36,195 nt of DNA, from assembly GCA_002256025.1 (NCBI GenBank), contig NKIB01015389.1, positions 1-36,195 on the forward strand. The letters run 5' to 3'. This DNA is from Asterionella formosa. Lineage: Eukaryota. Both the position numbers and the translations under genes were made by a program. The notes beneath the pieces are model-generated. The model made no database searches, had not been told where the DNA came from, and worked only from the letters and a program-made list of their open reading frames with translations. Below are positions 6,726-35,910 of the stretch, one piece after another (the first letter of the stretch is position 1; every line of letters starts with the position of its first letter).

Positions 6726-7544
6726 GTGCCGACTTGGGTATGTTTTCCGGGTGCAGGTGAGAGAGAGAGCTAGAGCAAAGCCAAAGGAAGGAGCTCACAG
6801 AAGGATAGTAAAATTTGTAACCTTCCTTTTTTAGTTCGAGACGTCTTTTACGCTCACACCACAGTTGTTTAAAGTTTGTTCTTTCAAAACAGGAGCAGGA
6901 CGATTTTCACTACCGTATTGTACTGGTAGCTACATACCGGTACATACATAAAATACATACCGGTCATCCTACATATGTAATAATACGGTACCTGGTACCA
7001 GGTATAGACTATTCTTTCGTGCGTGCTAAAGTATATACCGGTATATCCCTGGCATGTATGCATGTCAAACCTGTGCATCTTTTATGCATTTTTTCGGTGC
7101 CGTATATGTGTATAGCAGGTATACTTACTACCTGGTACCTGGTACCAGGTAGTCTTACCTTCATCATACACAGCTGTATCTTGTATGTACAGTAGACTAA
7201 AGACCAGGGACAGGAAGCTTCCATAATGACGCGCATCAGCCATGTGCCCATTACCAGCCTGCAGCCACCACCAGCATGCGCTACATGATGAGCGCCGTCA
7301 AACGTAGAACCATTCTTCGTGCTTGCTTGGCAGTGATGCTTGCTGGCTGTGTAGTTATTGCTCCTCTGCCTGCGACATAAGATTACTACTGTCGTACCGG
7401 TAGCTACCAGTATTTTAGGCAGAGGATACCGGTATATGATAAAATAATATTTTATTGTCTTGTTAAATGGTTGACCATCACTCGCCTGTTCTCTCGTCGG
7501 GCGAATTTAAAACCGAATAACAGCAGTGCTGCACATCTAGGATC

Positions 7545-8595: not shown

Positions 8596-9154
8596 GCAAG
8601 GTGGTGTATTTAAAAGTCACTTTGTTTCGATTCAGTTCCATTTCCAGGATTTTGCGAACATGCTTGCTTCAAGTCTAGACAATACTTGTTGGTGGGTTTA
8701 CTGCACTGGAGTAGAGTTGTAACAGTATGTAAGATGGATAGTAACGCACTACTTTTGCTTTTGTAGACTATCAGGTACCAGGAACTACCGGTACCGATAC
8801 TCGTATGTACAACCTGTAGTGCCCGTCGGTACGCATGTTCCTGCTACGGGGGGTACTAACTGGTACGGAGTACCAGTACCAGGTACCTGGTACCATTTTA
8901 CTATGTTACCAGGTACTGCTACCGGTTGTACCAGGGTACCAGGTACCGATATACAACCGGTGGTGCAATGATCAAGGCGTATACTGGAATGTACGTACCG
9001 TGTACATTTACGAACACCAACCACATGGTGTTTGTTGATCGCATCGCAGGGAGTATTGTGAACATCATCAACCCCCCGCCAGGCAGGCAGCAGTAGACCT
9101 AGACTATAGTTGTAAACAGACTATGGCATTTGTGTTTCAACCCAGATACTAATC

Positions 9155-11764: not shown

Positions 11765-13962
11765 CTTCTCATGTCAGTTGGAAAATTGGATTGTGAGTGT
11801 TGATTGGGATAAAGACTTCCTTTTTGGTCCCACTTCTGGTTCTATTTGGAGTATCCATAACTGATAATGATTCTGTGGTTTCTAGTATTTCTTTGCCTTT
11901 CTTGTTGTCATTGTCAATGTCATCATAGAATATTTCTGTGAGCAGCACATCCAACTCTGGCTCAATTTCTTCATCAGTAACTTTGTGATTTTTCTGTCTT
12001 CTTCTTCATTCTTCTGGTCAAAGTTGAGCACATCACCATTCTTGCATTCTACTTCTTCCTCTGAATTAGTTCTCATTTTCTCGAAAAAGCTAAAATTATG
12101 TTTTTTCTTCTTTTTCTCTTGTTGTCTTTGTGTCGTTCTTCTTCTGTTCTAGTTGTGTCCATACCTTCTCCATCATTTCCCCTTTGTAAGTGCTTTGTAA
12201 AATGCCAAATCGATAACCATGCAATCAATTTGTTCCCTTCTCCTTCATTTAGCATTGTCTGCTTTTTCCATGGCCAAGTTTAGCTTAGGGATGAACATTT
12301 TGAAGATATGATTAAGGATTCATGAGGCAGCAATAAGTAGGCAATATTTCAGAGTTGAAGCCGTAGAATGTACAGACGTATAAATGCATATTCATCACTC
12401 ATGTTATTGTTTGCCCAAAATGGCAATGACAACATGGTAAAGCTAGACATATTGAAAATACATGTTCACCAAATAATTATCATTAGTCACTCATTGAAAG
12501 ACAAGAAAATCTCCAAGTAATGCACATCCTCAGCAGCATACAGGTTGATTCTAGGATTTGGGTACAGAAAGCTGAGTGGTGCTGATGGACTGCATTGTAT
12601 ATTTACTTTTTGATATGGTAAGGAAGAAACAAGTCCTCTCACAATTAATGTTACAAATGACTTGGAAACAGTAGCTCAACTTCCTCCAGAATCTTGCACA
12701 CTTACACACTTTTCATTCATGTTTTTTCTTTTTGCTGTACATGGCGATAGAGATGCAATGTGGGAAGTTCTTTTTTGAAAAATTCTTATATATTGGGGGA
12801 GGATAAATGAAATTTTTTGAATTCTGAAGATGGCAAGAGTTGCTGCAAGCAATGACCCAACCTCAAACATTATTTCCCCCTGTTTTGTGACTGGTATCCA
12901 TTCTTACTCCCGACTTTTTGGAATTTCGCTTGATTCTAGGTTCCGAGTTCTTGTCGCAGACTCTGTGAAATGCAGTGCTTCATGTTCCGGACTTCATTGA
13001 AACATTTTGTGTTTCACGGTTCTGTTTTTTGTTCATGAATTCTCCATAAAGGAAGCCAAGCCTCCTTGTCTTCGGTTCTCGCTCGTTTTCCGCCGGGAAC
13101 TACATACAATTACACATGCTCAGTCATGCTTCCTGGTACTCCGAGTACCACCAGGGTACCTGGTACCAGGTACCAGTAATTGATATGCTGCGTAGAGATG
13201 TACATGGTACCGTATTCCGGCTTTCCATACACAGATACGGAAGCTTGTGCACCGTTCCAAATACCTTGAAGTAGATGCATCAATGTATTGTGACCCGTGA
13301 AAAGTGACACAAGGAACCCGATGTGGTTAATATTTGCCATGAAGGAAAGTATTTTTTGCGATCCCTCCCTCCGCAAGGATACTTTCAATCTGTAAGGAAC
13401 AATGTATAATTCCTCCGAAACGAAAATCAAGGTAATGCATGTACACATGTCCTAGATACTGGTATACAGCTACCGGGTAGACGTGTTTGATATGAAAAGC
13501 AAATTGTCCAGTATTCGTTGAACGAGTAAGCCTTTTGTTGTCATAGCTCAAAACACCTCCACGTATATACTCCTACATAAAAGCCAACCTGGAAGGTAAA
13601 AGACGACACTATATAGGAGTCGAGAAAAATATGTCCGGAAATGATAATAGGCAATAGGCAGAATCTGAAATCAACCTGTTTTGTCATTCGGTCATAGAGC
13701 ATCTCAGATTTTAGATACCATTTTTTCAGGACTACACTTGAATGTTCAATATCTTGTGATCCCGGAAACGATGTCTTCGTACACAACAAGAACAATCATG
13801 AGATCTGCCTTTACTGAACAATAAATAAGTGTCCGCCTTCAACATGGTCATTCGCATCGCTTGGCTTGAAACACAAGCAACGATCAAGCAACAAAACTTT
13901 TGAACACAAAAATCAAATTACCAGTGAAATACATGCACAATTGCAACATGCATGCCAACATT

Positions 13963-14802
13963 ATGTCGTCACAATATGGTGAGTCGATGTTCGATGCTGA
14001 AGAAAAGACCTACATTTACACGGACGAACCAACTAAGTTCGATATTTTATGCGGGCGCGACAAGCTAAGTTTTAACAATGCGGGAAATATTCGTTTTCGT
14101 TCTGTTGTCATCTTAAACCTTCAAAAATACAAGATGTCGGAATGTAAATTTGAAAGGTCAAGAGTTGTCGACGGGATTAAAGGCGAACTTCAAAAAACTG
14201 GGGGACGTTTCCTAAAATTTGATCGCAAGGCACGCCGGTGGAACAAGCTGAGTGGACGAGAAATTTCTGATAAGATCAGTCATGCACTCCGCGACAAGCA
14301 TCCTCCGATGATTAGCGCGAAGTTGAAAATGGGCAAGGCGCCTCTCTTTAAATTGAGAATGACGCCTGTGAATTCTGGCACATCTACCCTAATTCAAAAA
14401 GGTGCAATGAACAAATTATCTTCTTCTACTAATCGAGATTATACAAGCACTTCCGAAGACACCACCCTTCCAAACGCGATGCCACTTGGCGATACAAATA
14501 CAACAGGATTATCCACTCAGAAAAGAGGATCTTCACAAGTTTCAAATTTTCGACGTCGGCCCAAACTACTATCTGTGCACCATCGTATTGCACCAAATTT
14601 TGTTGTTACAGCAAGGACGCAAAAGAATGCGCCATTCATCAAAACCATTTCATCCAAAGGAGTTCTTTTTTCAGAATCTCTGAAAGGTTTGTGGGCGTCT
14701 GTTGAATTAGATCATGTCGAAAGGGATGAGTTCATGGATGAAATAAACGCATTGGATTTCAGCGGAGTAGGCGACCATTACCTCGAGTATCTCGATCTTT
14801 AA
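13963..14802 (+). CDS. DUF6824-domain protein (diatom-expanded family)
   Basis: PTKFDILCGR...NNAGNIRFR...GGRFLK...W...DKISHALRD is the family pattern, followed by a low-complexity tail. The start is uncertain; upstream in-frame ATGs exist at 13933 and 13948. Confidence 0.85.
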   Translation: MSSQYGESMFDAEEKTYIYTDEPTKFDILCGRDKLSFNNAGNIRFRSVVILNLQKYKMSECKFERSRVVDGIKGELQKTGGRFLKFDRKARRWNKLSGREISDKISHALRDKHPPMISAKLKMGKAPLFKLRMTPVNSGTSTLIQKGAMNKLSSSTNRDYTSTSEDTTLPNAMPLGDTNTTGLSTQKRGSSQVSNFRRRPKLLSVHHRIAPNFVVTARTQKNAPFIKTISSKGVLFSESLKGLWASVELDHVERDEFMDEINALDFSGVGDHYLEYLDL

Positions 14803-15846: not shown

Positions 15847-17490
15847 CGTTGGATCGACTGCTAGCGCGAAAGGATGGCAAAGAAAGAAAATGAAGAGTTT
15901 CCTTACGACAATTGAGACTGAGGACGGTATCTTGATTGATTTGGTTAACAGGTGACTACCGGTATTGTGTTGTTGCCATCGTGGCCGTCTTTCAATTTCG
16001 ACGTGATCATGACGAAGGGAATCAAATTGCCAATGTACATTCCGGTAATAGTGGTACGTACACACATTTAAGATGAACAATGTACCTGGTACCGATACCG
16101 GTATTTAAAGTGTACGTACGAATACTTCGTGTGGCTGCATTTCCTATCTTGAATACAGGTATTTTATATTTACCATTATAGTCAAACGCAACTCCTAACA
16201 ATTCATATGTACTCTCTCTGTTCAGCAATAGTTACAACCCAAACGTTATGTCGCAACATGCTTCTCATGAAGCGCAAGCTTCAATAATTCTCCAGATAAC
16301 AGTCCTTCCAACTTAAAATTGTTGCAAATTGAATGATGTATATAATTAATATGTTGTAAGTAGTCTAGAATTAGGTGAACCTGACCTTGATTTTTAGGCG
16401 CATTTTCATAGAATTGTGCTCCCTTGGGAATGTTTGCTCCAGGCCCCTCAACCGTTCACTTACCAATAGACATAAGAAGAAGGATTGAACACAGAACAGC
16501 AAAGTACATCGTTGAATGATTGCTTTGCAACCTCAAAAGGGAGGCTGATGAGATCATCAACATGGATGGCCGGCAACTTGTCATAATCCGCCGGGCATGT
16601 ACAAAACTTTTGCTACTGTATATCATTTGAAGTCTGTAGAATAAATTATTTTTTGTCCAGAAACGCATGCTTATTAGTTTATTTATCTATACCACTTTGA
16701 AACTAATAGCCAACATGACATACACAGACACAGGGTCAGCACACTGGCCAACAAAAATCAACAGCCCAAAACAATCCATGCGTATCGCTATTTAGTAGCG
16801 TTATACTTGCCTGATTTACTAATCTAACCAACACACCTGTCACCAGCATGGTCTTGCGTAGAAAATGCATATTGCTTCTACAGAGCCCGCTCAAAGCCGC
16901 TTCTTATTCCCTCGCTTTGGTCTAGCAATTCTGGGGTTAGGCCAGTACACAATGAGCGATCCAGCGCAACCTATTTGGATATTTTTATGTCAGCCAGATG
17001 TGTAAGACTTCGACTATGGCAGAACTCGCCATAGATGTATTTGCTTCAGTATTGAATATTTTGATGTTATCTTGATTGAGTGGGCTAGATATTGTCACTA
17101 ACTTATAAAATCATATATTCAATAAATGCTACTAGTCAGATATTTTACTTTGAATTCAAAAAGCGTCAAATGAGAACTAAAACATGGCAATTTACTTTCA
17201 AGTCCCTGTCCTTCGTCTCTTTACTATTAAGGATTATAATATCTTGAACATCTAAATTCAGATGTTTTGTGTTGCTTTGACCGAATGAAGGTTTGAATCT
17301 TTTGACCAAGATGTGCTTGATGGAAGCTCAGCGGAAAACCCAGTATCATCCCAACAATTTTGGTGTCATTGGGCGCTGGAACGCGGGGATCAGCACCACT
17401 TTTATTCGTTGGAATGGTACAATGGGACCTGTTCTTGGTTCATTAGCCATACCTCCAGAACCCTTGGAACTACACAAAAAGAAAGACAGG

Positions 17491-19247: not shown

Positions 19248-21050
19248 CTATTGTAGCTGATGGAGAAAGGATGCAATAAGTTGTTGAGAATTCATGTCTA
19301 ACAATCCCATATTGCCTTCTAGCTCTGACAAATCAGCTGCATGCTCCTCGGTTGTCTCGCAAAAGTCGCTTGATTCCAAACATCCATTTTCGGCACCTGC
19401 TTCCAGCTTTTCTGATTGCTTGCTTACTTTCAGAGCCTTCCAAAACTGCTCCATTGTTCGTTCTACATCAAATCGACAACCATTCAAGTCTTTGATGACT
19501 TGATTTATGGCAGCGTTTCTTGCCATGTCATCTACCTTACCCAACGGTCGATGAGCTCGACTCCATAAGTGGTAGGTCACTGATTCGGGTGGAGCATAGA
19601 GATTCCATCCAGCACAGAATAAACGTGCTGCCATACTCCATTCCTCACCAAAGAACAAATGTCGAAGTGTGATGTCATAGGGAACTTCGTGCACAGATGT
19701 TGATTTGGAAAAGTTGAAGCCGGCAGCATAAAGATAGCAGGGAATAGGTTTTGACCTTATTGAATGCATCATGCGTCCTCGTTGACGCAAGACCCCGCGA
19801 TCCATCTTCCAAGGCACCAACAATGTCCCTCGAGTTTCGCTTGGTAACTTATTTGGTAAATGATATCCTAGTGGGTAGGCCGTCATCATGCTCTTGTCAC
19901 CAGCAGGTAAAGCATGAATCAAGTATGTGTCCCAGTTGCGTCGAAATCTCATGTGAGAATCTATTTGGAGATAGTAATCTTCTCCCTGCATCAAATGTTG
20001 ACATAGGGCTCGAGCATAACAGGGACCGGCAGCATCCCTAGCGTGTAGCTGCATCATTCGAATATTTGCAGTATTTGGAATGGATTTCAAAATTTCGGCA
20101 TCTTCTTCTGGGTCAACTTGTAGTACAAGTCCGATGATAATACGGCTTGGGTATTGCGCTGTTCGAAGTAACGCCAGAATCGTAGGACCCGTTTCTGAAT
20201 CTCGGTAACTGGCGATAGCAACAAATATTGTCTTGCCTGTAGATGAGTCGTTCTGATAAGAAACAGAGAGCGGAGGTGGACCTTGCCCATCTTCGTTTTG
20301 GGCTGAGATCATTGGTCCTTCTAATATATTGACAGCCTTTCGTAATAACCTCCCATAAACCCAGATAGTCAATGCTGCTCTATCCCTCTTCAAGGAAGGC
20401 AATACTTGATGTTCCACTCCATCACTTCGAAAAATCACCATTCTATTCGAAAATGGCGTAACATCGTAATGGTTTTCGTTTGATTCAAATATTCTCAATT
20501 GTCCTCCATCCTCGTCAGTCCAATCAGGTGGTGTCAAGTAGTAAATGCATGAAATGAGTCGCTGATATTTGTCGGCAAAGTTGGGGCCGATTTCCCTCCA
20601 GCACCTATTCGATCGATCACAATGTCTAGGATATCCACTTCGTCCATCTCCCGGATAAACGGCTATTTGTACCGACGAATGGCTGAACTCCATCGACTCC
20701 CTTAGTTCGTGTCGCACTGTCGCCTCGATGGAGGTGATAAACGTATGCAATAATGGATGATGGACCGCAAATTCAGGTTTTTCTCGAAAATCCTTGGGAA
20801 TAAAACGAGACTTGTCACCGCGTGTCGTAGGTGGTACTCCTGACGCTCCTAATACCACGAATGGATGAACATCACCCTTTGTTCGAGCCGCTTGAAGGTC
20901 GTCCATCCACCCATTGCTGTGAAGTTCGGCTTGAATAGACAACGGTTCAGGAAAAACATGGTCAAGGATATTGTATCCACTAGGACCGCCTTGTAAAAGT
21001 ATTTTTGTAGTGACTGGTGTCCAGCACGAGAGCTGGCCCTTGGTTGTCAT
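19248..21050 (-). CDS. Fusion of a 2OG-Fe(II) prolyl 4-hydroxylase (PhyA/EGLN-like) and a Skp1-hydroxyproline GlcNAc-transferase (Gnt1, GT60)
   Basis: N-half: GYPRHCD (HxD), CIYYLTPPDW, GGQLRIF, VIFRSDGVEHQV, RAALTIW. C-half: TIFVAIASYRD, AAGPCYAR, LQIDSHMRF, YAAGFNF, LFFGEE. Single 600-aa ORF with no signal peptide. Confidence 0.88.
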   Translation of the reverse strand: MTTKGQLSCWTPVTTKILLQGGPSGYNILDHVFPEPLSIQAELHSNGWMDDLQAARTKGDVHPFVVLGASGVPPTTRGDKSRFIPKDFREKPEFAVHHPLLHTFITSIEATVRHELRESMEFSHSSVQIAVYPGDGRSGYPRHCDRSNRCWREIGPNFADKYQRLISCIYYLTPPDWTDEDGGQLRIFESNENHYDVTPFSNRMVIFRSDGVEHQVLPSLKRDRAALTIWVYGRLLRKAVNILEGPMISAQNEDGQGPPPLSVSYQNDSSTGKTIFVAIASYRDSETGPTILALLRTAQYPSRIIIGLVLQVDPEEDAEILKSIPNTANIRMMQLHARDAAGPCYARALCQHLMQGEDYYLQIDSHMRFRRNWDTYLIHALPAGDKSMMTAYPLGYHLPNKLPSETRGTLLVPWKMDRGVLRQRGRMMHSIRSKPIPCYLYAAGFNFSKSTSVHEVPYDITLRHLFFGEEWSMAARLFCAGWNLYAPPESVTYHLWSRAHRPLGKVDDMARNAAINQVIKDLNGCRFDVERTMEQFWKALKVSKQSEKLEAGAENGCLESSDFCETTEEHAADLSELEGNMGLLDMNSQQLIASFLHQLQ

Positions 21051-21394
21051 TGTCGTACGAAATAATTTTAGAAAAAATAAAAGGAAAAATATATTTCGTC
21101 CCCCTCTTTTTGATAAACCCTTAAACCCTAGCCTACAGCGTTAGGGGAAGCAACTCCAACTGCCTATCGGTAGGAAGGCGGCACAAGCTGCTTATAGGGG
21201 GGGCAAGACCGTGTGAGATGGTAAGGAGTGTGAGAGTCAAACCAAACAATAGCTTCTCAAAAAATCGCGGGAATCAAACCACACAACTTCAGATCAAAGG
21301 CAACCTGCTCTACTGACTAAGCCATTCCCTGCGGTGGATATGGTACTTTTAAATTGAAATTAGGCAACAATGGCGATTTGAAAGCGTTGTTCTT

Positions 21395-22600: not shown

Positions 22601-23027
22601 GTTAAATTCCGATACACACACATATTTTTAGTAAATCATACACCATGTATACATCATGTATTAGTCAAGCATGTACCGATACGTAGTCTCGAGAGCACAC
22701 CCCAGGATATTACCGTGCAATGAAGTCTAGGCAATATTTTACCTGGTGTGCCGGTAGTACTTTACATGCATGGCACAGGTATCTATTACATATTCGTACA
22801 GTACCTGCTACCTGGTACGAGTACCAGTACCAGGGTATTCTTAAATTTATTATGTGGGGTACATGATAATAGTTTCTAAATCTTCAGTACCCGTCACCCT
22901 TGCTTCAGCATGATGAATGAATCACATCTTCCTCGCGCCGGGGCATTGGTATACCGGTACTGTAGGATACTAATACATACCACCGGTCACAAAAACTATT
23001 TAATATTTCCCGCAATCCACCCTCACC

Positions 23028-23600
23028 ATGCTAAAGTCAACAGCCCGCTCGACCAGCCGCTTACTAGCGGGACGACGAACCCTGGCCACAACACAAGGCA
23101 CTCGCTCCAGTCTGCCCAAGTCGCCGCAGCCGTCCATGCCAACGGGTTCGATAGATCCAAATTACTTGGCACAGCTGCGCATTGAACAAGACATTGGGAA
23201 TTTGTCTGGTATTGAAGCTGTGCAAGCCATGCCATTTCGTATCAAAGCTCAAAACTATGCGACTGCTATGACGTTAATGGGATTTTGTGTCGGGGTCTGG
23301 TATTACAGCATGTCTAGTGTTGGCAATGCTGGTACGAAGGACGAACCGTTGTCGCAGTTGATGATCGAAGCAAATGCGGCCAGCCTCAAGAAAGATAAGC
23401 AGTCTGAAAGAGATGAGGAGAGTTTGAAGCATTTGGACTTGGGCGTGTCTGACCAAGACTTGGAGGACGGCATTGAGATGGCACTGGCTGCACCAGATGA
23501 GATTGCGGAGCAAGAAGAAGCAGAGAATCGGGCGGGATTGAAAGAAAGCGCCACCTCCAAACGGTCTTTGTTAAATCGAATTATTTTCTTTTGGAAATGA
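23028..23600 (+). CDS. Mitochondrial COA3/CCDC56-like (cytochrome c oxidase assembly factor 3-like) protein
   Basis: Arg/Ser/Thr-rich mitochondrial presequence. KAQNYATAMTLMGFCVGVWYYSMSSV resembles the COA3 transmembrane motif. Acidic tail. Confidence 0.65.
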   Translation: MLKSTARSTSRLLAGRRTLATTQGTRSSLPKSPQPSMPTGSIDPNYLAQLRIEQDIGNLSGIEAVQAMPFRIKAQNYATAMTLMGFCVGVWYYSMSSVGNAGTKDEPLSQLMIEANAASLKKDKQSERDEESLKHLDLGVSDQDLEDGIEMALAAPDEIAEQEEAENRAGLKESATSKRSLLNRIIFFWK

Positions 23601-23712: not shown

Positions 23713-24151
23713 TTAATTTAGTCTAGGGTCGTCGTCCTTGGCATGCTTGCACCAATATTGGGAGGGTATTCCAGGCCAGGTGGGAGGAATAGGACGCCGC
23801 TCTTTCGAAGCGGAAATACTGCCTACGCCGAAAGCAAGAACGCCTACTACACCAAAGGCAACAGCTGTGTTGCGTTTCCAGGCATTTGGCAAGCACCACC
23901 AACCACCTGAAGGTGTCCAGATCTAGAGGAGAGTTAGGATGAGAGCAACGAGAATGTTAGCGCAATACATCCATTTTGGCTTCCAGCTCCGTCCATGGGT
24001 AACAGAATCACCGTGAAGTCGAACGAGTCAATACTCCTGTTCCGTCGTTTCTTCCAGCATTACCGGGTATTTCATCACCGCCATCGCTTGCTATCTTATT
24101 CACCACGGACCAACGCACCTTCGGAACGTAATACCAACCACCACCGCCCAT
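23713..24151 (-). CDS. 80-aa single-TM protein, NUUM-like putative complex I accessory subunit; 2 exons (24151-24119, 23922-23713); absent from the ORF track
   Basis: MGGGGWYYVPK|IWTPSGGWWCLPNAWKRNTAVAFGVVGVLAFGVGSISASKERRPIPPTWPGIPSQYWCKHAKDDDPRLN*. Phase-0 intron 24118-23923 (GTGCGT..GCTAAC..TAG). Resembles the fungal PKxVWSPAGGWWxxPxNWKxNT family. Confidence 0.75.
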
Positions 24152-24749
24152 TGTAGGATTCAAACGAGGATCTCGAAGGGCTTAGCTTGCCTTGTGATGC
24201 AATCAATGTGTTGATACCGATTCTTGCTTGTCCCTGGTATGCTGAGTCTCTACCGTAAATACCGGTAATAGGTTAGCATACCGGTACATACGTGATATTC
24301 TTTATGTACCCCCAGTGAGTACCTAGTACCCTAGTACCAGCATTACCAACTGGTGCTCCAAGTGCAGACATACCGGCATTTGTGTACAGTACGTATGGAT
24401 TTAGTTACCAGTTGGGGTAACAGGTACCGTTATACCGGTACATATGTAGGATCAATATTAATTTGTCTGTCTAAATACCGGTAGCACTTTACTACCCGCG
24501 CGAAACAGGTACGACAGCACCACTTGCTTGCATAAGCAATGTCTGTGTCTAGTGCCCAGTAGCTCGTAACCCCACAACTTTTCCATTCCCCACCCTCGTC
24601 TGCTCCTCTTCGCCAGAACTGCCTTGGTGCGGAGTAGCTACATACGTATATACTGTTCAATTCGACGAGACAGAGCGAAGCAAAATAATTATTTATGTAC
24701 AGCGTAGAGACACAAGCATACCAGTAATCGAGACGAACACGAAGCCACG

Positions 24750-25438
24750 ATGAGCATCTCCCTCCGGTTCGACCAACAGAAGTTCCTCTGTGTCCTCCTT
24801 TTTGTTACGATGATTGTTATGTCTCTAGCTCAAGAAGTGAGTCAAATAAGGACGAATAAAAATATTGTTGTTGTACTTTTAGGCACTCACTTCCATGGAC
24901 CTTTCTCGAATTTCCTCCACAGGCCAACCCTGCTATTGATCTCCCTCGAGACTTGACTCTTCCCCGAACGAATCCAGCAGACCATTCTGTACAATTTCTT
25001 TTTTGCCGAGGGTGAGGCATGCAACGGAATTTCGTCTCGGCCAAGATGTATCTTGAAGGCGAATTTCCGGGAATTCACGTGGACGGGGAGAATTACCCGC
25101 CTCCACCAATCATTGAACTGTTCATGAAGTTGTTGCAGGCCATTCAACTCTTTGCCATGGGATTAATTGTTTTTGGTGATGTCTTCTGGACAAACATTCT
25201 GAGGTTTCGATCTGTTCCTGCATTTTACCACAAAATTAAGGAGTACTACTTCCAAATGGGCCTTTTGGTCTTTTTCGTGATTCCTCAGATGTTGAATAAA
25301 TACATCATTACTGGGGCGTTTGAAATGATTTTGGATGGAGTAATAGTTTACAGCAAATTGGAAACGGGGCGTATGCCCAACGCTGGTGAATTGTCGGCTC
25401 CGCTGGAGGCAATTGGTCTGTTGAGGGGTGGAAAGTAG
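24750..25438 (+). CDS. SELENOT: Selenoprotein T-like (Rdx family), Sec-containing, CRGU motif; 2 exons (24750-24836, 24923-25438); TGA at 25013-25015 = Sec
   Basis: Signal-peptide exon, then a phase-0 intron 24837-24922 (GTGAGT..CAG), then QFLF-C-R-G-TGA-GMQRNF, GENYPPP, a hydrophobic middle and TGAFE...YSKLETGRMP. A SECIS lies in the 3' UTR and the tandem paralogue has Cys at the same position. Confidence 0.92.
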
Positions 25439-25466
25439 TTCGAGGCGCCAGGAGAGTTGAATTGAT

Positions 25467-25546
25467 TCGATTTCATTCTGGAATGACGAGCATTTATCAA
25501 ATTTATTTATTTATTTTTGATGCTTTGAAAACAAGAAAGAAATCGA
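25467..25546 (+). promoter_or_regulatory. SECIS element
   Basis: Helix I TCGATTTC/GAAATCGA plus TTCT/AGAA. Core ATGA (25483-86) opposite TGAA (25526-29). Helix II GAGCATT/GATGCTT. AAA (25499-501) lies 12 nt after ATGA. Confidence 0.85.
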
Positions 25547-25584
25547 TACAGGGAAACTTGTAAGGATTGGCCTCACACAACTAT

Positions 25585-25640
25585 GCTTGAATGACGACGG
25601 GAGTTTCGACTTTTTTGTCCACTCTTTTCTGAACAATTGC
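25585..25640 (+). promoter_or_regulatory. Second SECIS-like hairpin (no apical AA)
   Basis: ATGA (25591-94) opposite TGAA (25630-33). Stem GACGGGAGT/ACTCTTTTC, apical ministem GAC/GTC and basal TTG/CAA. Confidence 0.4.
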
Positions 25641-26458
25641 GCCATGTGTGAAATATGCCAGTTTTGTCATAAAATCAGTGCCAGTGTAACAAGAAACAGG
25701 ATAAGGATATTGTTTAGGACGTAGTAGAGAAGATTACCATAATTTTGGATTAGTCATTTCCTGTTTCGCCATGGCTTTTGCCTTTTTTGGTCTCTGCTGA
25801 TGTTGAGAATGAATTCGAAGCATCATGATATGAATAATTCATTTATTTTTACCGTAATGATTTCTACTACAACAAAAGCCACCATGGCGATATTTTGAGC
25901 CGAAGATAACCATCACCCTGCAGAACATGGATGTTCCTTTGAAGCTGTAGATGATGTCTTAGACCTCTTGTATGTCATCGTAACTAGAAAAAGGGGGGTT
26001 GAGTTGAATTTCTTTTCAATGGAATGGAAAACTATCCTAAGGAAAGTAGCATCAAGTATTTGCTCTCCATAACTTGTACACTAGCCTAACTCTTTTCTAG
26101 GAGCCATTATACACATCGGAGTTGCCGTCACCATCATAGACTACCGGTATTTCTTGCAAACTTTGGGTGTTCGCTAACTGACATACCGGTACTACCTTAT
26201 GCAGGTTCTCCAAGTACCAGGTACTCGGAGTACCTGGTACCACGTACCACCGGGAACCGGTAGCTGGTACTCCGAGTATCAGGTAGTAACATACACGGTA
26301 CTGGTACCAGGTACCAGGTACCCGGTTTCTCAGGAAAACAATACATATATGTATGATGCCGGGATGTAGCAAGCATAAAAGCCAGATCGCTCGTTCAGAC
26401 AAATTCTTGTTTCCTCTTTCGTTTCGCCAGTGGTGACAAAACTTCATCCGTATTGACC

Positions 26459-27204
26459 ATGGTAGGCACTTCGAGTACCGGTATCTCGTTCCGGTTCGAC
26501 CGCCAGAGAGTTCTTTGTGTCTTCCTTTGCATCTTACTCTCTGGCATCGTTTTTTCTCAAGAAGTGAGTAAATGGCGGATAAATCGATTCTTAATAATGG
26601 CTTAATGTTTTTGTTTCCGTTGTGTACCGGTATTCCATGTAGCCACTCACACTCACTTTCCATGAATGGAATTATTTGACTCCCTGGACAGGACGATGCT
26701 ATTGCCCTCCCTCAAGATTTGACTACTCCCCCACCTAATCCCGCGGAACATTCAATCAAATTCCTATTCTGTCAAGCGTGTGGTATGGAACGGAACTTCC
26801 TCTTCATTAAGCATTTTCTTGAAGCCGAGTTTCCTGGGATTCATGTTGACGGTGGCAATTACCCAACACCACCAATCATTGAGCTGCTCATGATGTCTAT
26901 GAAGGGCACGCAACTTTTCGCGATGGGACTCATCATTTTTGGAAATGGACTGTGGACCAACATTCTGAGATTTCGATCGGTTCCTACGTTTTACTACAAG
27001 GTGAAGGAAAATTATTTTGTTTCGTTCGTCGTTGTTTTCTTTGTCTTTCCGGGACTTTTGAAAAGGTATGAGAAGACGGGGGCATTCGAAATGATTTTAG
27101 ATGGAGTCACAGTCTATAGTAAGTTGGAGACTGGGCGCATGCCCGAACAAGGTGATCTATTGGCTCCGCTGGAGGCCATTGGTTTGTTCAAGAGTAGAAG
27201 ATAG
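26459..27204 (+). CDS. Selenoprotein T-like paralogue, Cys form (CQAC); 2 exons (26459-26563, 26692-27204)
   Basis: Colinear with the upstream copy. Same intron position (SQE|GTGAGT; intron 26564-26691). TGT at 26779-26781 aligns with the Sec TGA of copy 1. Confidence 0.9.
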
Positions 27205-27444
27205 TAGCTCGTAGGAAAGGGTGGATGAGATCGCAAGAATTTATTTTCTGGCATGGCTAGTAGTCATCGGCTTTTTAAGACGCATCGAAATCAAGGAATT
27301 AGCACGTATGCTTAAAAAGTGTGGGTTCAGGTAGACGACAACCAGGAGTGGAGTGCTGTTGGCCTAAAGCCCATGGAAGAGGTGTGTTTCTTTCAAAGAT
27401 ATGGACCACTGACCTAGTCTCATTCATGCATTGGTAGTGCGAAA

Positions 27445-29499
27445 TTATTGGTCCTTCTTTTGAACCGCCAAATCTCTGAGAATGCGTGCGTCTTCCTCGT
27501 GCACAAATTGTGTTCGCTCCAGCTCCTCCATGATTATTTCTGGAATCTCAGGAACAACCGCACGGATCAGTAACCCTGTATAAACTAATATACGTTCCAT
27601 TCCAAAAATTATGAAAACAACAATCCAGCCCTTGCCTGGTATCAAACGCAAGTGACCCGAATCGTCATAATGGTAAAATCCAGGAAGATACTCTCGCATT
27701 TGACCGGAAGTGAAACCAAAGATGAGACAATTTGTGAGAGCTGACAACCATGTAATTCCTAGTAACAAAGTCTTCCACATTCCTAAGCCATTACTCCGGG
27801 TCGACTTGGGCCTTCGACACAAAAATGTCAGCTTGAAACAATCAGCTCGAATTTCGATCAAGTTGGCCACGATTGCAATTAGTGACGCCAATGGATAGGC
27901 CGATGCAAAGAGTGTCACGTAACCATACTGAATCACGATTTCCATGTAGTCATCAAACTGTTCATATTCATCAAGCTCTGCTTCAGTTGAGAGCGAAAAA
28001 GGAGTTGTGCACTTCTTTCTAGTCAAACGTTGAGCAATCATGGGGGTTAAACATTCCAAGAAGAGACGTCGAAATGTGTCGATGTTGAAGACCGAAACAA
28101 GCTCAGAGGTGAGCTTGTTCATGTTTCGCTCAAAAAAGGCCAAGTAGAAGAGTGCGACATAGCAATCAAAAGCTTCGAAAAGAAAGCGCTTCAAAACGAG
28201 CGAGTTTGTGTAACTGGGCAACGTCTGGTGATTTTCCCATTCTGTAAGATGAGTGGCGACCACTCTATAAATCTTATTCAATGAGAAAATTGTGGCCACG
28301 TGAACAATGACTGGCACCAATGATCTGATCGTAGAATTGGCATCAAAAATTTCTCCTGGGTCAGCGAGTTTAGATAGGCTTGGAAAGTAGAATGGATGGG
28401 AGCTACCTGTACCCCATCGATCAGGGTCGTGTTTGGGATCGATGTAGCCTTGAAGGTTTAACGAAAAAATCATGGCTGTAAACGCGACGCCGAGCATGGC
28501 AATTGTCACAATGGCAGACACGGCAAATTTCAACCGTCGCTTGAACTGTGGATAGTGTACTTCTAGCCGTCCTGTCACGGGAGATATTCTCAATTTCCCC
28601 CTGAACTCAGTGCGTACTTCAAAATAGGTTTGTCGTTCGTATTCGTTCAGTAGTGTTCCCCATTGGTATGACCACTGGTACTCTTGACGTCCCCAAAACT
28701 GCAAAAAAATAATTGCCCAAAGGAAAGTGATTAATCCATAAAATGGTGTGAATTCGTCATTATCAATGGTATCATTTCGGTACCATCGATAAAATGATGC
28801 ACAAGTCCCAAGGAAGCCGGGGACGAGGAGCCACTGCGTAAGGAATCCCATCCAACCAAAGTAAAAGGCGACTTCATCGCCATAATATCCTTGAATCAGG
28901 TGTGTTGGGGGTAGCAAACCCCAACCACATGTCTTCTTCCAAATATCTTCCTTCAATCTGGTTAGATGCAGAGATGTTACAACGTCCACAAGTCCTGCAC
29001 GTGTCAATACATAGCGGAGCGACTGGGTAGGATGCTCCTCTTCGCCTGGTGCGATCAAGTCACTTTTGGATGCGCAAAGTCTGCGGCGATATGGTATTTT
29101 GAGTGCGTCGAGCTGACGAGAAAGATCCGAGTATATCTGGCCTTTAGGTAATACATCAACGTCGTTCAAAATTCTCCAACAGAGCAAGGCCCAATCGTTG
29201 TGCGACAAGAGATTATTGGCGAAATTGCTTCGATGCTCCCATCGAAAGGGTTCCATAATTCCCTTGTCGATTCTCTTCTTGATTAGTCTAATCTTTTGTG
29301 CTTCGAGCAAGAGGACTCGCTCTGTCGTTGTGATTCCAAGCGCAACAGGTTGGTTCGATTCTTCACGGTCAACCACTTTCAGTCCTACTTCCATGAGGCG
29401 ATCCACTATGCAGGAAATCAAATCTGCAGATGTCTCTTGCGCAAATCTCATCAAAATGATGGGCTGGGTCTCCATTTCCTGGATGGTTAGTGTCGCCAT
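27445..29499 (-). CDS. Anoctamin (TMEM16) family Ca-activated channel/scramblase
   Basis: IQGYYGDEVAFYFGW, LTEWENHQT, LKRFLFE, DDYMEIVIQYGYVTLFASAYPLA, NLIEIRADCFKL and multiple TM segments. Confidence 0.95.
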   Translation of the reverse strand: MATLTIQEMETQPIILMRFAQETSADLISCIVDRLMEVGLKVVDREESNQPVALGITTTERVLLLEAQKIRLIKKRIDKGIMEPFRWEHRSNFANNLLSHNDWALLCWRILNDVDVLPKGQIYSDLSRQLDALKIPYRRRLCASKSDLIAPGEEEHPTQSLRYVLTRAGLVDVVTSLHLTRLKEDIWKKTCGWGLLPPTHLIQGYYGDEVAFYFGWMGFLTQWLLVPGFLGTCASFYRWYRNDTIDNDEFTPFYGLITFLWAIIFLQFWGRQEYQWSYQWGTLLNEYERQTYFEVRTEFRGKLRISPVTGRLEVHYPQFKRRLKFAVSAIVTIAMLGVAFTAMIFSLNLQGYIDPKHDPDRWGTGSSHPFYFPSLSKLADPGEIFDANSTIRSLVPVIVHVATIFSLNKIYRVVATHLTEWENHQTLPSYTNSLVLKRFLFEAFDCYVALFYLAFFERNMNKLTSELVSVFNIDTFRRLFLECLTPMIAQRLTRKKCTTPFSLSTEAELDEYEQFDDYMEIVIQYGYVTLFASAYPLASLIAIVANLIEIRADCFKLTFLCRRPKSTRSNGLGMWKTLLLGITWLSALTNCLIFGFTSGQMREYLPGFYHYDDSGHLRLIPGKGWIVVFIIFGMERILVYTGLLIRAVVPEIPEIIMEELERTQFVHEEDARILRDLAVQKKDQ

Positions 29500-29884
29500 G
29501 GTGGGCGGTGGAGTGCTGCCAACTATGCACGGGGAGGATTGGCATCAAGTATTCCGCAGTTTCTTGATTACAAGGTCTATTGTAATACCGGTTGTTGAAT
29601 CTACAAGTAGGACCTGTCTTCTATTGTGTCTTTAAGGCAACAATGTAAATGAGGACAGACAACAAAAGAGGTTTGATCGATTGCAAACCAGATACCGGCA
29701 ATTAATTAAGAGTGAACGAGTAAAGCCCATGCTTACTGTGTGTGTGTTCCTACTATCAGGCACCTGTATCCTGGTCCTGGTCCCGGGCACGTAATGTTAA
29801 ACTGATTGTGGCGTGATCTCTGGTGACGCTCCCTTTTTCTTTTTTCGTCGTATGCCTATAACTGAATCCATCCGTTTTCTGTAG

Positions 29885-30755
29885 AGTCAGTATATCACTT
29901 GATGATCATGTAGTGATATATATAAGAGATTGAGTCTTAAATGGAAGGTAATGAAAACTAGAAATTTCCAGAAGATTACAGATTGTAGAAGGATCCAAGG
30001 TTGTGTACTAGAACTTAAGTGACAAACTGTGTGAAAGGTTGAGAAGGGTGGATCTTGTAGGGATCCAAGGTGGTAGATCTTGTAGGGATCCAAGGTTGAA
30101 AGAAAGGAATGAATGTAAGTTTGGTTGACAAAACTGATGTTTTCAATTATACTATGAGCTTAATTCTAGTTGGCAAAATGAGGAAGGTGAGGAAGTGCCA
30201 GAAGCAACTAATGAAGTGCTGGCATCATGGAATGAGTAATGAATCTACAGAATCCTAAGGGAAGCAAAGGTAGAGAAATGCCAGTAGCAAGATCAGAGGT
30301 GCTGACAGTAAGCTGTGTATGAAATGTACAGCCTGGTACCATAGACCTGCCTACTTGGTACCAGCAGCATTGTGCTGGTGCTGTTATACCAGTACTACTA
30401 TGCATAAAATCTGGTACCAGTACACAGTCTGGTAGCATCACTAAATTCCCGCCGGAAGTATCATCATGGTACCTGCCTGGTAACACAGAACCATCATCTG
30501 ATGGCCAGTACTAGGTACTACTACCACCAGGTACCAGGTACAAAGCCTGTTACTGCTAAGCATCACTAAATTCCTGCCGGCAGCTGCTGGTGTGCAAACC
30601 AGTAGTACCTGGTAGTAAAGTGCTGCTCCAGCCAGCAGTATGGTGCTGCCGTCATTGACAGGGCAGAACCGATTTAGCGCTACTACTGTTGGTAATATAC
30701 CAGCATTGCTCCTAGTAGCTACTAGTATACAAATGACCAGTACGCTATACTGACT
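29885..30755 (-). repeat. 3' LTR (871 bp) with 10-bp terminal inverted repeat AGTCAGTATA...TATACTGACT
   Basis: 29885-30011 is identical to 36069-36195. The other end abuts the PPT and carries the inverted copy of the terminus (30746-30755). Confidence 0.85.
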
Positions 30756-30856: not shown

Positions 30857-33800
30857 CTACCACCCCATGACCAACTTCCGAATGGACTCAAAAACAGTGC
30901 GTACAAGTCCTTTGGTGAAAATGTCTGCCTTTTGTTTGGTAGTGGAAATCTTTATGATTTTAATGTATCCATTTGCAACATGGGAACGGAAGAAATGGTA
31001 CTTGACAGCAATGTGTTTAGACCGGGGTTTCATGCGGGGTGAGGAGGCAAGAATGAGAGCCCCATTGTTATCCTCAAAGACCTTACTAGAATAAGTTCGT
31101 ATTTCAAAAATTGGACTATGTCCCATAGAAATTGCCATTTCCTGAACAAGGGCACGAATAGGAATAAGCTCACGCATGGAATGGGATAATGCAATGTACT
31201 CAGCTTCCATACTAGTGGACAAGGCAACTTCAGTTTGAAGTTTTGAGGTCCAGGTAAGAGGACAGCCACCAATAGTGATGAGGTATCCGGTACGCGACTT
31301 GATACTAAGAGGGTTTTGGTCATCTTCATGTAGCCAAAGGCCAGCAAAATCCGCATCAACATAACAATCAACCCCAAGATCCCCAGATGGAGAAAGAATG
31401 AGACCTTTGTCACGGGTACGAATGAGGTATCGTCCAATGGCTTTAATTGCAAGAGCATGCTGGGTTTGCTTGGGAGCATGAGAGAATCGAGCACACTGGT
31501 GAACCGCAAAGGCAATATCAGGACGAGAGTTGTTGCTCAAGTAAAGAAGCATACCTATGACAGATCGATAATTCCATGTGTCAGTCATGGCAAGCCCATC
31601 AACATTAGACCCCAGCGATTCTTTTGTAGTGAGAGTCCAGGTTGGGTTCTTGGCAGAGTTGAGACCTAAGGTAGAGATAATGCGGTCAGTGAGACCAGTT
31701 TGCGTCAAGGTGAAGGTATCATTTTTGCGAGAGACTTGGATGCCCAAGAAAGCGGCAAGTTCACCTTCTGCAGTGAGATCTGCATCAACTTTGAGATCAG
31801 CCACAAGTGCATCAAGAACATTAGAGTCTGGGCCAGCCATTATAATGTCATCCACATACTAGCAAACAAGGACAGTAGTTTTGCAATAGAAAAGACATGG
31901 ATCGAGGGAACTTTGAGTGAAACCGCGTGTTTCAAGTTTTGCTTTCAGATGGTCGAACCAGAGACGAGGGGCTTGCACCAGGCCATAGAGGCTCTTGGTG
32001 AGCTTCAGACAGACATCCTGTTCAGAATCACTCTGATAGCCACGAGGGAGATGGACATAAATTGGTTCATCAAGGGCAGCTTGAACAAAAGCATTGCCGA
32101 AATCAATACACCAAGTGTAGAGCTTGAAAAATAAGGTGAAGTACATCAGAAGACATACAGTAGTCCACATCACAACAGGAGCAAAGGTGTTTTCCATTGG
32201 TTCTTGGAGGTCACCACGAACACACCAACAAGCCTTTAGTGATTTGATGCGTCCGTCTGGGTGACGTTTACGGCGAAGAGTCCAAGTGCCAGGTAGGATT
32301 TTAGTTGTTGCTGAAGATTTTGACACAATTTCCCAAGTTCCTTGTTTGATGAGTGAAGTGATTTCCTTGTGCATGGACTCCCTCCATTCAAGGGCATCAA
32401 CATCACGCATGGCTTCATCATATCGAAGAGTATCAGGGTCACTGGAGGAAGCAACAAAAGCGCCCAAAGCGACGTCATTGAGGTGACCATCTGTGCAGGG
32501 GGCGAGCGGGTCCCAATCAGCAAACTTGGCAACGAGGTGGTTGAATTCAAGTTCATCGCCATATCGTGTGCCTACAACACCTTTTGTACTTCGCTGAGAG
32601 CGACGAGGGGGTACGGGAGCAGGAGCGGGATTGGGTTGTTGGTTCCTTGGTGGAGGTTGTGTCTCCCTCAGAGCCAGGGGAGGTAAACCTGAAGGCTCCC
32701 TCGGAGATGTCAGGAGACTGGGACTCGAGAATCCTGGGCGCCTCTAATGAGTGAGTTTTGCCTGTTATGTTGCTCTTGAGCAATAAAATCTTCATTCCAT
32801 TCATCACCCAATGGAGGAGGTTCATAGTCATCAAAGAAATATTGGAAATGACTGTGCCCAAAGAGGTTGTCCCAAATTGGATCATTTAAGTCTGGAACTC
32901 GATCAGGATCTGAAATGACAGTGGAGAACCAAGAGTCAAATACACAGTGGAACTGAGGGCTGATGTATCCATTGTTCAGATTAAGCACCAGTGGGGCAGT
33001 GGAGGCATGCTTCTTTGAGAGTCCCAAGAAAACTGCACGACGTGAACGAGGTTTCCATCTAGGAAGTTTCTCTCCATCCTGCATGGTAGAATCCAGGACA
33101 TACACGGGACTTCCCCATACTTGGAGATCATTGCATTTGTGGGTGGGCCATTTAGTGCCTGAGAAAATGTTAAGAGGTGCCAGGCCATTTTTCCTGTTAG
33201 GGAGATGATTATGAATGTACACAGCATAGTCAACAGCCATAGGCCAGAGGGTAGTATCAGCAGTGTCACACCAGCGGATGGCAGCATGCAGCATCATAGT
33301 TCGCGCCATAGACATAATGGTTTGAATGTTCCGCTCTGCAACACCATTATGATGATGAGCACCTACTCCAGAAAAGTGGCTAACTTGTTTGAAAGTTGCT
33401 AATTCTGCAACATATTCCTTATCAGTGAAAGCCTTTCCATTGTCTGAAAGGTAAGATTGAACAATAACTCCAGAGTCACGAGCAGCAGCCTCAAATTTGT
33501 GTTTTGAAACAAGAGTTTCATGAGAGGTCAGAGAGACTTGATGTTCCACATGAACAAAACCGGAAGCATGGTCGACAAACAGACATCCTCCTGAGTACAT
33601 TTGCTCTTGAGCCGTTTTTCCTTTTGAATCATACTAGTGTCGTCCCTTAGTGTGACAAACAAAGTGATCGACTGAGACTTGCTGCCCTGGTAGGAGGTCT
33701 CCTTTCTCAAGTGCACCACAGCTTGATGGAACAGGGGTAGAAACACTGCTGGAAGTTGGTCGACGTTTTGCCTTTCCAAATTGGCAGGAGGCACAGCGAG

Positions 33801-35910
33801 GTAGGACACAGTTGGATGCTGAACGGTGCAGATTCTTTTGCCCTTCTTTTGTTGCAAGGGCTCCTGATCTCAACAGTAATTGCATTGATTCAAAGTGTAG
33901 ATGGCCAAGACGGAAGTGCCAACGCAATAGTTCCTTCTGAGCTTCGGTTAGATTTTGATTGTTGGAATCGGTAACATAGAAGTTAAGCTCTTGAGCACAG
34001 CGATTGACATCCACTTCATTGTATCCATAGCTGATAGGAAGGTTATTGTTGGTTGAGAAAGGGACAACAATGTCTGGTGCTCCACCAACACAGATACGAA
34101 TATGATCAGACTCAACTTGACCATAGGCGGGAGTTTTAGATCCAACAAAACCTTGGATATAAGATTGCCAACTGAGGATTCGTTGGTGAGCTCCAGGAGT
34201 ATAGTAAGCAGAGAGCTCAAGACAATGGATAGTACCATCAACTGTTGGAACCATCCACCTGACCTTGCCTTGACCTTCAATTGATAATCCTGCTGCTAGT
34301 CCTTTCAGTATGACAGGTGTGGCCAAGGGGGTTATCCCATCAACAAAGTCCTGGATATTGTGATTAAATGTACTGGATGCTCCTGTGTCCCAAATGAAGG
34401 AGAACTGTGCTGCTGAGGAGAGCCCAAGGACAGTAGTACTTGGACTTTTAGTGGCAAGACAACAAAATGGACTTGGGACTGGATTACTGGCAGCAATTGT
34501 TGGTGTATAGAGAAGACTCCGAGCCTGACAACAATGTTTAACAAAGTCAAAATTGAGTTGCACAAATTCCAAGTCCATCATTGACACCAGCAAGCAAGGT
34601 TTGCACTAATAACAGGTGCTTCAATGGCAGGAGCAGGTGTGGGGGCAGCAGGAGAAGCAGGAGAAACCGCATTTGGAGGTTTCCCATGAGTAGATCCAAG
34701 GTGCGTTGAGGTCCAAAGTCCCAGGCCTTTGCGACACTTGTTACAGAAAATTGAATGATTTATCACCAACAACTTTGACAGTTGGCTCTCCAGGCTTGGG
34801 TGCTACTTCGCGCCAGTTGTGCTTCTTAGGATCTGTGGGCTTGGGAGGAGGAACAGGCACATTACCACCAGGTTTAGCAGCAATGGCTGCTTGAACAAGG
34901 GCATTGAATGATGCTCGGTCCATTCCAGTATAAAACAGGGAAGGGGCCTGTTGCATATCCTTTACAGTGCTGGCAGGGGACCAATCACCATTGTCCAAGA
35001 GAGAGCGGTAGGCTTCTTCAGCAAGATCAAGGATAGCTGTGTAGTGAAAACCCTTTTTGACCATGAACCTTTTGGCTGAATCTTTGGATAGGTAGGCTGA
35101 GTCTGAGAGAGCAGAGTCAAGGTCAAGACGCTTGGGATGCCAAATGGCACGAAAACTCTCAACTGAAACCTGACAGAGTGCCTTAATGATTGCCAACACT
35201 AACACCCATTCAAACTGATGGGCATTTTCAAGTTCAAGGAAAATTCTGCAGATCTTGTTTGCATAAAGTGAGACACTTTCACCAGGTTCCTTAATTGGAG
35301 ACAGCTGCTTGAGTTCATCTTTCTTTCGGTTGAATCGCTCAACAGATCCACTGCTAACCATGAAGGATGCGCATCCAGGTAACGGCAGCAGAGTCACCTG
35401 GTTCCTGACGGAGGTCAAGTTCCTTGAGGAGTGAGGGATCAAGTGTGGATTCAAGATACAAGCTAGCAGTTGTGTCATTGTCCTGGTCATAAGAATCAAT
35501 TTTGTTCTTGTAGTACTCAGATTCGTCAAGGTCATGGGAAAGGGTGACCTGCTCAAAGTCCTTGATGACATTGACCATATTGGTGTCATCACTGAGACTC
35601 TTGTCATACATGATGGAGTCCATACCTGTGAGTTCAAGATGTGCCAAAACCTTAACACCATAGGAGTATAGGTCTAGTTCCTTGCCATCCTTTTTAAACA
35701 GAATGAGAGGTGGAGCTGTGCGGTAGTTCCAGTTCCTTGACTGATCACTGGACTTAGTTGGACGAGAGCAGTTGGGAGAACGCTTGATTGCTTTGACATT
35801 GGTCAGTCCAGTCCAGTCCAGTCAATGATGTTAGATTGACCTCCAGTCCATGCAACAATTTCGGTTGGACAAATGGTGAGTCCTCCCATAATAGGTTTGT
35901 CAATGGTCAT
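30857..35910 (-). pseudogene. gag-pol polyprotein pseudogene
   Basis: Split into at least 6 track ORFs by stops and frameshifts, e.g. TAG at 31859-31861 directly before YVDD and TAG at 33634-33636 inside the integrase. The start at 35910 is inferred. Confidence 0.88.

Follow-up and report, generated by a model that had tools for sequence, protein, structure and literature searches.

In a 36,195-nucleotide (nt) stretch of Asterionella formosa DNA (GenBank assembly GCA_002256025.1, contig NKIB01015389.1, positions 1 to 36,195 of the forward strand; hereafter the window), we identified a pair of co-oriented selenoprotein T (SelT) genes on the plus strand at 24750-27204, each with two exons. The evidence as a whole makes it probable that the pair stems from an old tandem duplication, in which copy 1 is still a true selenoprotein gene and copy 2 is a cysteine (Cys) version, with both copies expressed and kept. 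Copy 1 carries an in-frame TGA, the proposed selenocysteine (Sec) codon, at the position where copy 2 has TGT. The features of the pair are listed below.

24567-24749, plus strand: 5′ untranslated region (UTR) of copy 1, minimum extent; the RNA contigs from runs X1 and X3 agree with the window sequence onward of 24567
24750-24836, plus strand: copy 1 exon 1 coding part, ATG and hydrophobic signal-like N-terminus, 29 codons
24837-24922, plus strand: copy 1 intron, 86 nt, GT..AG, phase 0; joint 24836>24923 in RNA contigs
24923-25438, plus strand: copy 1 exon 2 coding part, stop TAG; Rdx/SelT domain with the CRGU motif
25013-25015, plus strand: in-frame TGA of copy 1, proposed Sec codon (residue 60 of 200), aligned with the second Cys of CQAC
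25025-25069, plus strand: hairpin after the copy 1 TGA, starting 9 nt past it
25439-25771, plus strand: copy 1 3′ UTR, delimited by RNA contig ends
25467-25546, plus strand: stem-loop resembling a selenocysteine insertion sequence (SECIS), in the copy 1 3′ UTR; AUGA 25483-25486, AAA 25499-25501, UGA 25526-25528
26459-26563, plus strand: copy 2 exon 1 coding part, ATG and hydrophobic signal-like N-terminus, 35 codons
26564-26691, plus strand: copy 2 intron, 128 nt, GT..AG, phase 0; joint 26563>26692 in RNA contigs
26692-27204, plus strand: copy 2 exon 2 coding part, stop TAG; Rdx/SelT domain with the CQAC motif; full copy 2 product, both exons included, of 205 amino acids (aa)
26779-26781, plus strand: TGT (Cys) codon of copy 2, homologous to the copy 1 TGA

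An earlier, sequence-only reading had described two co-oriented copies with the same intron position and five long shared peptides, and a catalytic codon one base apart between CRGU (TGA) and CQAC (TGT). All of this was found again. The peptides EFPGIHVDG, WTNILRFRSVP, TGAFEMILDGV, YSKLETGRMP and APLEAIGL occur in both translations, and the introns are backed by RNA contigs. In both copies the intron lies in phase 0 after the Glu codon of 'AQE' (copy 1) or 'SQE' (copy 2), which closes the hydrophobic N-terminal segment. With the TGA read through, copy 1 comprises 200 codons, and the catalytic codon stands in the context FLFCRG-TGA-GMQRNF in copy 1 versus FLFCQA-TGT-GMERNF in copy 2.

RNA evidence came from Logan contigs of four runs (X1, X3, X5 and X6, of which X3 is a PolyA library) from three studies, and the runs containing the sequence are labelled lake-water, freshwater or algae metatranscriptomes. 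The copy 1 splice joint was present in three of the four runs (X1, X3 and X6), and X5 held a copy 1 exon-2 contig that ends at 25723 and then runs into A. At the 3′ end, the X3 and X6 contigs of copy 1 stop at 25771 and one X1 contig extends to 25989. The copy 2 joint was present in two of the four runs (X1 and X5, from two studies), in contigs starting at 26381 (X1) and 26390 (X5), and the other two (X3 and X6) held exon-2 pieces. mRNAs of both copies occurred together in all four runs. Both genes are transcribed and spliced as modelled, and the spliced copy 2 contigs in X1 and X5 refute the possibility, named in the sequence-only reading, that copy 2 is untranscribed.

The same contigs held some irregularities. 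X3 has a variant copy 2 joint (26564>26695, with two other letters between), and several coding variants were seen in RNA, including S69F of the exon-2 product, which also occurs in the relatives P0004 and P0006; the variant joint and the coding variants indicate that the lake samples contain several strains or alleles. In X1 and X3, the copy 1 contigs begin with 27-29 letters upstream of 24567 that are unlike the window and could represent a 5′ UTR intron, a strain difference or a chimeric contig. A 3124-nt X5 contig spans spliced copy 2 and continues past 27500, where a convergent anoctamin gene lies, and the 3′ ends of the copy 2 and anoctamin transcripts may overlap. Parts of the intergenic region, such as 26064-26167, had no RNA contig over them.

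The two exon-2 products align without gaps and are identical at 112 of 170 positions (66%; BLASTP E 3e-80), a likeness that, judged by this score, is far above chance. At the DNA level, 24931-25439 of copy 1 showed 71% similarity to 26697-27205 of copy 2, exon 1 showed 67% between the copies, and DNA comparison of the introns, UTRs and upstream regions of copy 1 and copy 2 showed no similarity. Over the 170 aligned codons there are 149 nucleotide differences, distributed 37/30/82 among codon positions 1/2/3. Both frames are intact despite the third-position differences, in line with the sequence-only reading. We then calculated pairwise nonsynonymous (dN) and synonymous (dS) divergence over 169 exon-2 codons, with the Sec/Cys column left out, by three counting methods and one maximum-likelihood (ML) run:

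NG86: dN 0.227, dS 1.338, dN/dS 0.17
LWL85: dN 0.223, dS 0.933, dN/dS 0.24
YN00: dN 0.254, dS 0.998, dN/dS 0.26
Biopython ML (F3x4): dN 0.195, dS 0.273, dN/dS 0.71

The counting methods place dN/dS at 0.17-0.26 rather than near 1, as expected from the earlier proposal that both copies are under selection, with the ML value as a caveat that we return to below. Split at the TGA, exon 2 gave a dN/dS of 0.29 upstream (29 codons) and 0.15 downstream (140 codons), and exon 1 gave 0.44 between the copies. Since the upstream codons and exon 1 show these values, the reading frame before the TGA is constrained. These ratios indicate that both copies are kept under purifying selection. Because dS is ∼0.9-1.3, similarity is confined to the exons and the frames are constrained, we conclude that the duplication is old and that both copies have been maintained.

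Several features support the view of copy 1 as a selenoprotein gene. The TGA aligns with a Cys codon of copy 2 and coding conservation lies on both sides of it. Furthermore, an Rfam SECIS_1 match (25474-25539, plus strand; 21.7 bits, E 0.84) with a full-length alignment lies 45 nt past the copy 1 stop codon, within the transcribed 3′ UTR, and was the sole SECIS_1 match on either strand of 24000-28000 in an Rfam scan at E<=10. The E-value refers to 4227 families and 8 kb; roughly rescaled to one family and one strand of the 333-nt UTR, it becomes ∼1e-5. The fold of the segment 25466-25547 (-20.7 kcal/mol, z -3.75; equalled by 1 of 200 shuffles) consists of a long helix I, then an internal loop that carries AUGA and UGA, and helix II. 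In a constrained-fold scan of the 132 ATGA..AA..TGA instances in the window, ten formed both helices and the copy 1 element ranked second by energy. The only variant seen within the element, 25536 A>G in three runs, converts a predicted U-A pair to U-G and keeps the pairing. For copy 2, we found no SECIS_1 match (E<=10, 24000-28000), no plus-strand ATGA..AA..TGA pattern in the 3′ UTR and no relic SECIS, and its 3′ UTR (27205-27300) showed no unusual structure (z +0.17).

Two other stretches were considered in the course of the SECIS scans. A second ATGA-containing stretch (25578-25650) was discarded, having no unusual structure (z +0.57). The best-energy instance of the pattern scan was 7285-7336 (plus strand, -22.4 kcal/mol), opposite an open reading frame (ORF) at 7009-7506 on the minus strand; its fold is not SECIS-like and it is probably a chance occurrence.

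Relatives of the pair also point, indirectly, to a conserved TGA. Eleven of the 16 relatives start exactly at the Met after the Sec position, which is what a gene caller yields when it stops at TGA. More distant relatives read CVGW, CVSW, CTQW or CASW at the motif, which suggests that a TGA was called as Trp. Together, the truncated starts and the CxxW readings are consistent with conservation of the TGA among relatives and would fit Sec as the ancestral state. In addition, the hairpin just past the copy 1 TGA has a minimum free energy of -18.7 kcal/mol (z -1.70; 11 of 200 shuffles as good), versus -9.6 kcal/mol (z +1.0) for the homologous stretch of copy 2. Stem-loops just downstream of UGA, known as Sec redefinition elements, regulate the synthesis of some human selenoproteins, including SelN, according to passages of PMC3541580. 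The copy 1 hairpin could be an element of this type and is offered as a lead rather than a result.

Next, we placed the two products within the Rdx family. Both match Pfam PF10262 (Rdx) above its cut-off of 22.6 bits (copy 1: E 2.7e-10, 40.7 bits; copy 2: E 2e-11, 44.4 bits). Positions 2-69 of the 74-position profile are spread over 136 residues, so both copies must carry a large insert. A long hydrophobic or helical insert between strands b2 and b3 separates SelT from SelW and SelH. In the ESM Atlas, copy 2 is nearest to a 'putative SelT-like protein' cluster (score 0.91), and relatives at 77-78% identity carry the JGI name selenoprotein T.

An AlphaFold2 model (pLDDT 83.3) was built with a 61-row alignment for P0006, which is copy 2 but for one residue in the 170-residue exon-2 product (99%). 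The predicted order is b1 (56-61), CxxC (62-65), a1 (68-81) and b2 (86-91), followed by the helical insert at 96-162, the strands b3/b4 (167-178) and one last helix. The redox motif (CRGU in copy 1, CQAC in copy 2) would thus stand directly after b1, at the start of a1, and the insert between b2 and b3 is present, as the predicted helices 96-162 together with hydrophobic segments. The best Foldseek matches in the PDB were Rdx proteins, namely MIEN1 (2ljk), the bacterial SelW-related proteins 2fa8, 2obk and 2p0g, and mouse SelW (2npb), with probability 1.00 and target TM of 0.54-0.82, at E-values of only 4e-3 to 5e-2 (none <=1e-3). A hydrophobic N-terminal segment is present in both copies (residues 9-30 in copy 1 and 15-35 in copy 2; Kyte-Doolittle maxima 2.41 and 2.46). 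On profile, insert and predicted fold, we class copies 1 and 2 as SelT-type Rdx proteins. SELENOT is described in passages of PMC13134290 as an endoplasmic reticulum (ER)-membrane-anchored, thioredoxin-like enzyme that is often duplicated, and Sec-SELENOT ranks among the most widespread algal selenoproteins in the relevant section of PMC7539508. By analogy with the family, both products would be expected at the ER.

To place the copies among their relatives, an ML tree of 24 rows was used. One clade (support 98/95) united copy 1, copy 2 with P0004, P0005 (a Cys form, CHVC) and seven Sec-type relatives with truncated starts. Copy 2 and P0004 form a pair (100/100) on a stem branch of 0.34. Among the 11 clade members 57 columns are invariant, both Cys-lineage rows included. 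Tajima-type relative-rate tests gave no significant acceleration of copy 2 (P < 0.05 with none of five outgroups); the unique changes in copy 1/copy 2 numbered 11/16, 10/12, 15/11, 5/13 and 7/10 with the respective outgroups. The Cys lineage is known from three close variants only, P0006 (99%), P0004 (91%) and the partial P0018 (90%). The last of these, from a 567-nt contig, diverges wholly after 'TGAF', which would fit an extra unspliced intron or the contig end. A pattern search of metagenome contigs for orthologous DNA, based on an 11-row alignment, yielded 68 matches, and tblastn confirmed none of them. As Sec-type relatives prevail and a Cys-to-Sec change is argued to be harder than the reverse (a general argument, PMC7539508), we infer that the direction of change was from Sec to Cys.

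Based on these results, we propose that an ancestral SelT gene of the Rdx family underwent an old tandem duplication, and that copy 2 most likely acquired its TGT afterwards by a one-base Sec-to-Cys change. In copy 1, the UGA at 25013-25015 would be recoded to Sec with the aid of the gene's own 3′ UTR SECIS (∼25467-25546), perhaps assisted by the hairpin just past the UGA, to give a CRGU oxidoreductase. Copy 2 would give a CQAC version that needs no selenium, and the same populations would make both forms. Both products are predicted to be signal-peptide-bearing, thioredoxin-fold CxxU/CxxC oxidoreductases with a SelT-type helical hydrophobic insert. One cell would thereby hold selenium-dependent and selenium-independent versions of a presumed ER-membrane thiol-disulfide oxidoreductase, encoded side by side. 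The term selenium-independent, used in the sequence-only reading, is apt for copy 2 because its codon is Cys; that the Cys copy acts as a backup, as was also proposed, may be the case. Plain co-expression of the two copies, with partial redundancy, is most likely.

Some observations weigh against this proposal. The tree inside the 11-row clade gives neither the timing of the duplication nor the number of Cys origins: copy 1 and copy 2 are sisters in the best tree with support of only 45/75, and in an approximately unbiased test, a single clade of all Cys forms was not rejected (P = 0.36). The SECIS_1 score of 21.7 bits is below the Rfam gathering score of 35, and a whole-window Rfam scan with stricter filters was without a SECIS match, returning only a mir-624-like match on GTAC palindromes. 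The minimum-free-energy structure pairs the AAA instead of leaving it in a loop, and the bare ATGA..AA..TGA pattern is not enriched in the window (92 matches versus 82.2 expected). For selection, the Biopython ML run over the whole of exon 2 gave dN/dS 0.71 with dS 0.27. This value conflicts with what ML gave for the two parts of exon 2 (0.29 and 0.14), as well as with all three counting methods, and is treated as a numerical outlier. Pairwise dN/dS is moreover a joint value, which cannot place the constraint on the copy 2 branch alone, and the RNA contigs speak for the presence of transcripts, not for expression level or protein.

If the copy 1 TGA were instead a true stop, copy 1 would be a decaying pseudogene, or would encode a 59-aa peptide or an N-terminally truncated protein of 139 aa, leaving copy 2 as the sole functional SelT. 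Gene callers indeed give only the 139-aa product (P0003), and the sub-threshold SECIS score would fit. However, we regard this reading as scarcely credible: relative to copy 2, the frame upstream of the TGA is conserved (dN/dS 0.29 over 29 codons, 0.44 in exon 1), none of the 200 codons holds another stop or a frameshift despite a dS of ∼1, spliced and polyadenylated copy 1 mRNA occurs in several runs, and the 3′ UTR contains the SECIS-like element. Ten other relatives are truncated alike, pointing to a conserved TGA, and the 139-aa product would be without both signal peptide and CxxU motif. A different view is that the copies are subfunctionalised, having diverged in substrate, partner or membrane context with the Sec/Cys difference incidental. 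At eight positions, mainly in the helical insert (A39I, L70M, Q71K, I73T, Y107N, Q110V, N124K and I127E), the Cys lineage (copy 2 and P0004) has a fixed residue other than the one common to at least seven of the nine other clade members; the stem branch of that lineage is long (0.34), and copy 1 and copy 2 differ in the hydrophobic profile of their inserts. Nevertheless, the relative-rate tests were without significant asymmetry for all five outgroups, and redox motif, fold elements and signal-like N-terminus are retained in both copies, and we consider subfunctionalisation unlikely, while giving it some weight.

The sequence-only reading had also raised a selenium-responsive switch, in which the two genes would be reciprocally regulated by selenium supply, the Cys copy rising when selenium is scarce and the Sec copy being favoured when it is plentiful, as in Methanococcus maripaludis. 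Sec and Cys isoforms of one enzyme do adjoin each other here, their promoters and UTRs have fully diverged, so independent regulation is possible, and both have long been retained (dS ∼1). The source RNA comes from lake and freshwater metatranscriptomes, where selenium limitation may occur, and PMC11097638 provides the archaeal precedent. Yet both mRNAs were present in all four runs, including the PolyA library, which does not speak for on/off alternation; the GTAC-rich repeats upstream of copy 2 recur in many other intergenic stretches of the window and are thus not gene-specific; and our literature search found no report of a selenium-regulated Cys paralogue in a eukaryotic alga. A switch of this kind is therefore doubtful. 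Slimmer still is the chance that the long-kept tandem pair (dS ∼1) is a selenium-sparing device, with the Cys gene induced, or its protein taking over, at low lake selenium, and with the SECIS and the UGA-proximal hairpin tuning recoding of the Sec gene. If true, the pair would parallel, in a eukaryote, the archaeal switch between Sec and Cys isoenzymes and would open a way to study selenium sensing in algae.

The proposed Sec/Cys SelT pair can be compared with several known systems. It shares with the SELENOT of animals and algae the Rdx domain, a CxxU motif after the first strand, a thioredoxin-like fold with a hydrophobic helical insert and a signal-like N-terminus. It differs in its motifs, CRGU and CQAC, and in that the Cys paralogue adjoins the Sec gene. 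The animal SelT motif is CVSU, and more distant relatives of the pair read CVSW.

Jiang et al. 2020 (PMC7539508) account for a Sec/Cys GRX pair in the diatom Fragilariopsis cylindrus by a Sec ancestor that was duplicated, with a later point change to Cys. As in our case, a single diatom genome encodes the same redox protein once with Sec and once with Cys. However, that pair encodes GRX rather than SelT and is recent, with >80% positives and homologous flanking DNA, whereas the SelT pair is old (66% identity, dS ∼1), lacks similarity in flanks, introns and UTRs, and is tandem. Passages of PMC13134290 describe vertebrate cases of duplication and Sec-to-Cys change, such as MIEN1 (from SELENOW2), GPX6 and SELENOU1. 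These resemble the SelT pair in that thioredoxin-fold selenoproteins formed paralogues and underwent Sec-to-Cys conversion, and one of them, MIEN1, is likewise an Rdx member. In contrast, the same passages name the vertebrate SELENOT duplicates as selenoprotein paralogues and mention no Sec-to-Cys conversion for them, and they tie the vertebrate events mostly to whole-genome duplications rather than to a tandem pair. M. maripaludis has Sec and Cys versions of the same enzymes, of which the Cys versions serve under selenium depletion (PMC11097638). The likeness lies in a genome that encodes one enzyme both as a Sec and as a Cys isoform. The archaeal examples differ in being methanogenesis enzymes with demonstrated selenium-dependent expression, whereas the SelT pair is known from genes and transcripts. 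Same-family clusters of algal selenoproteins are named for SELENOW (two genes), SELENOU (two) and PRX (three) in section 11 of PMC7539508, which names no SELENOT pair. No tandem Sec/Cys SelT pair of a diatom came up in our literature search, which covered the text of PMC7539508 but not its figures and supplements, where one may be listed.

The route proposed here, a duplication and then a Sec-to-Cys change, has been documented before, and the pair therefore extends rather than changes current understanding. Its interest lies in the natural comparison that it offers between the proposed Sec form and the Cys form of one enzyme, which are both expressed within one cell. As such it could be used to ask what SelT, a protein of still ill-defined biochemical function, gains from Sec, and whether algae adjust selenoprotein use to selenium supply. 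The pair also exposes an annotation problem, as gene prediction lets the proteins of copy 1 and ten relatives begin just past the Sec codon and so truncates their N-termini.

The DUF6824 neighbour and the labels of the RNA runs make a freshwater diatom the likely host. The genes around the pair are ordinary nuclear genes:

13870-14802, plus strand: DUF6824 protein; its nearest Atlas clusters are commonest in Bacillariophyta
19248-21140, minus strand: prolyl-hydroxylase/GlcNAc-transferase
23004-23600, plus strand: weak Coa3-like ORF
27445-29544, minus strand: anoctamin gene (Pfam E 1.9e-101), convergent, ending near the copy 2 stop codon

GTAC-rich repeats lie upstream of both SelT copies and were considered as a shared regulatory element. 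This idea was rejected on account of similar clusters in many intergenic parts of the window. Dense clusters of GTAC/GGTACC-type palindromes, in stretches that look intergenic, were noted at 26140-26330, 24250-24500, 8751-9000, 3001-4000, 13001-13250, 16001-16250, 22751-23000 and 30251-30750. The window holds 196 GTAC in total, versus ∼137 expected from base composition, with 16 in 8751-9000. The clusters yield spurious miRNA-like Rfam matches (mir-624 at 26213-26287), and unrelated RNA contigs match them over short lengths. The repeats may serve this organism as a promoter or spacer motif throughout its genome. Farther downstream, a minus-strand run of long ORFs at 30857-35673 includes one (30857-31858) with a weak RVT_2 reverse-transcriptase match (30.7 bits; cut-off 31.6), and the run is probably a Copia-type retroelement.

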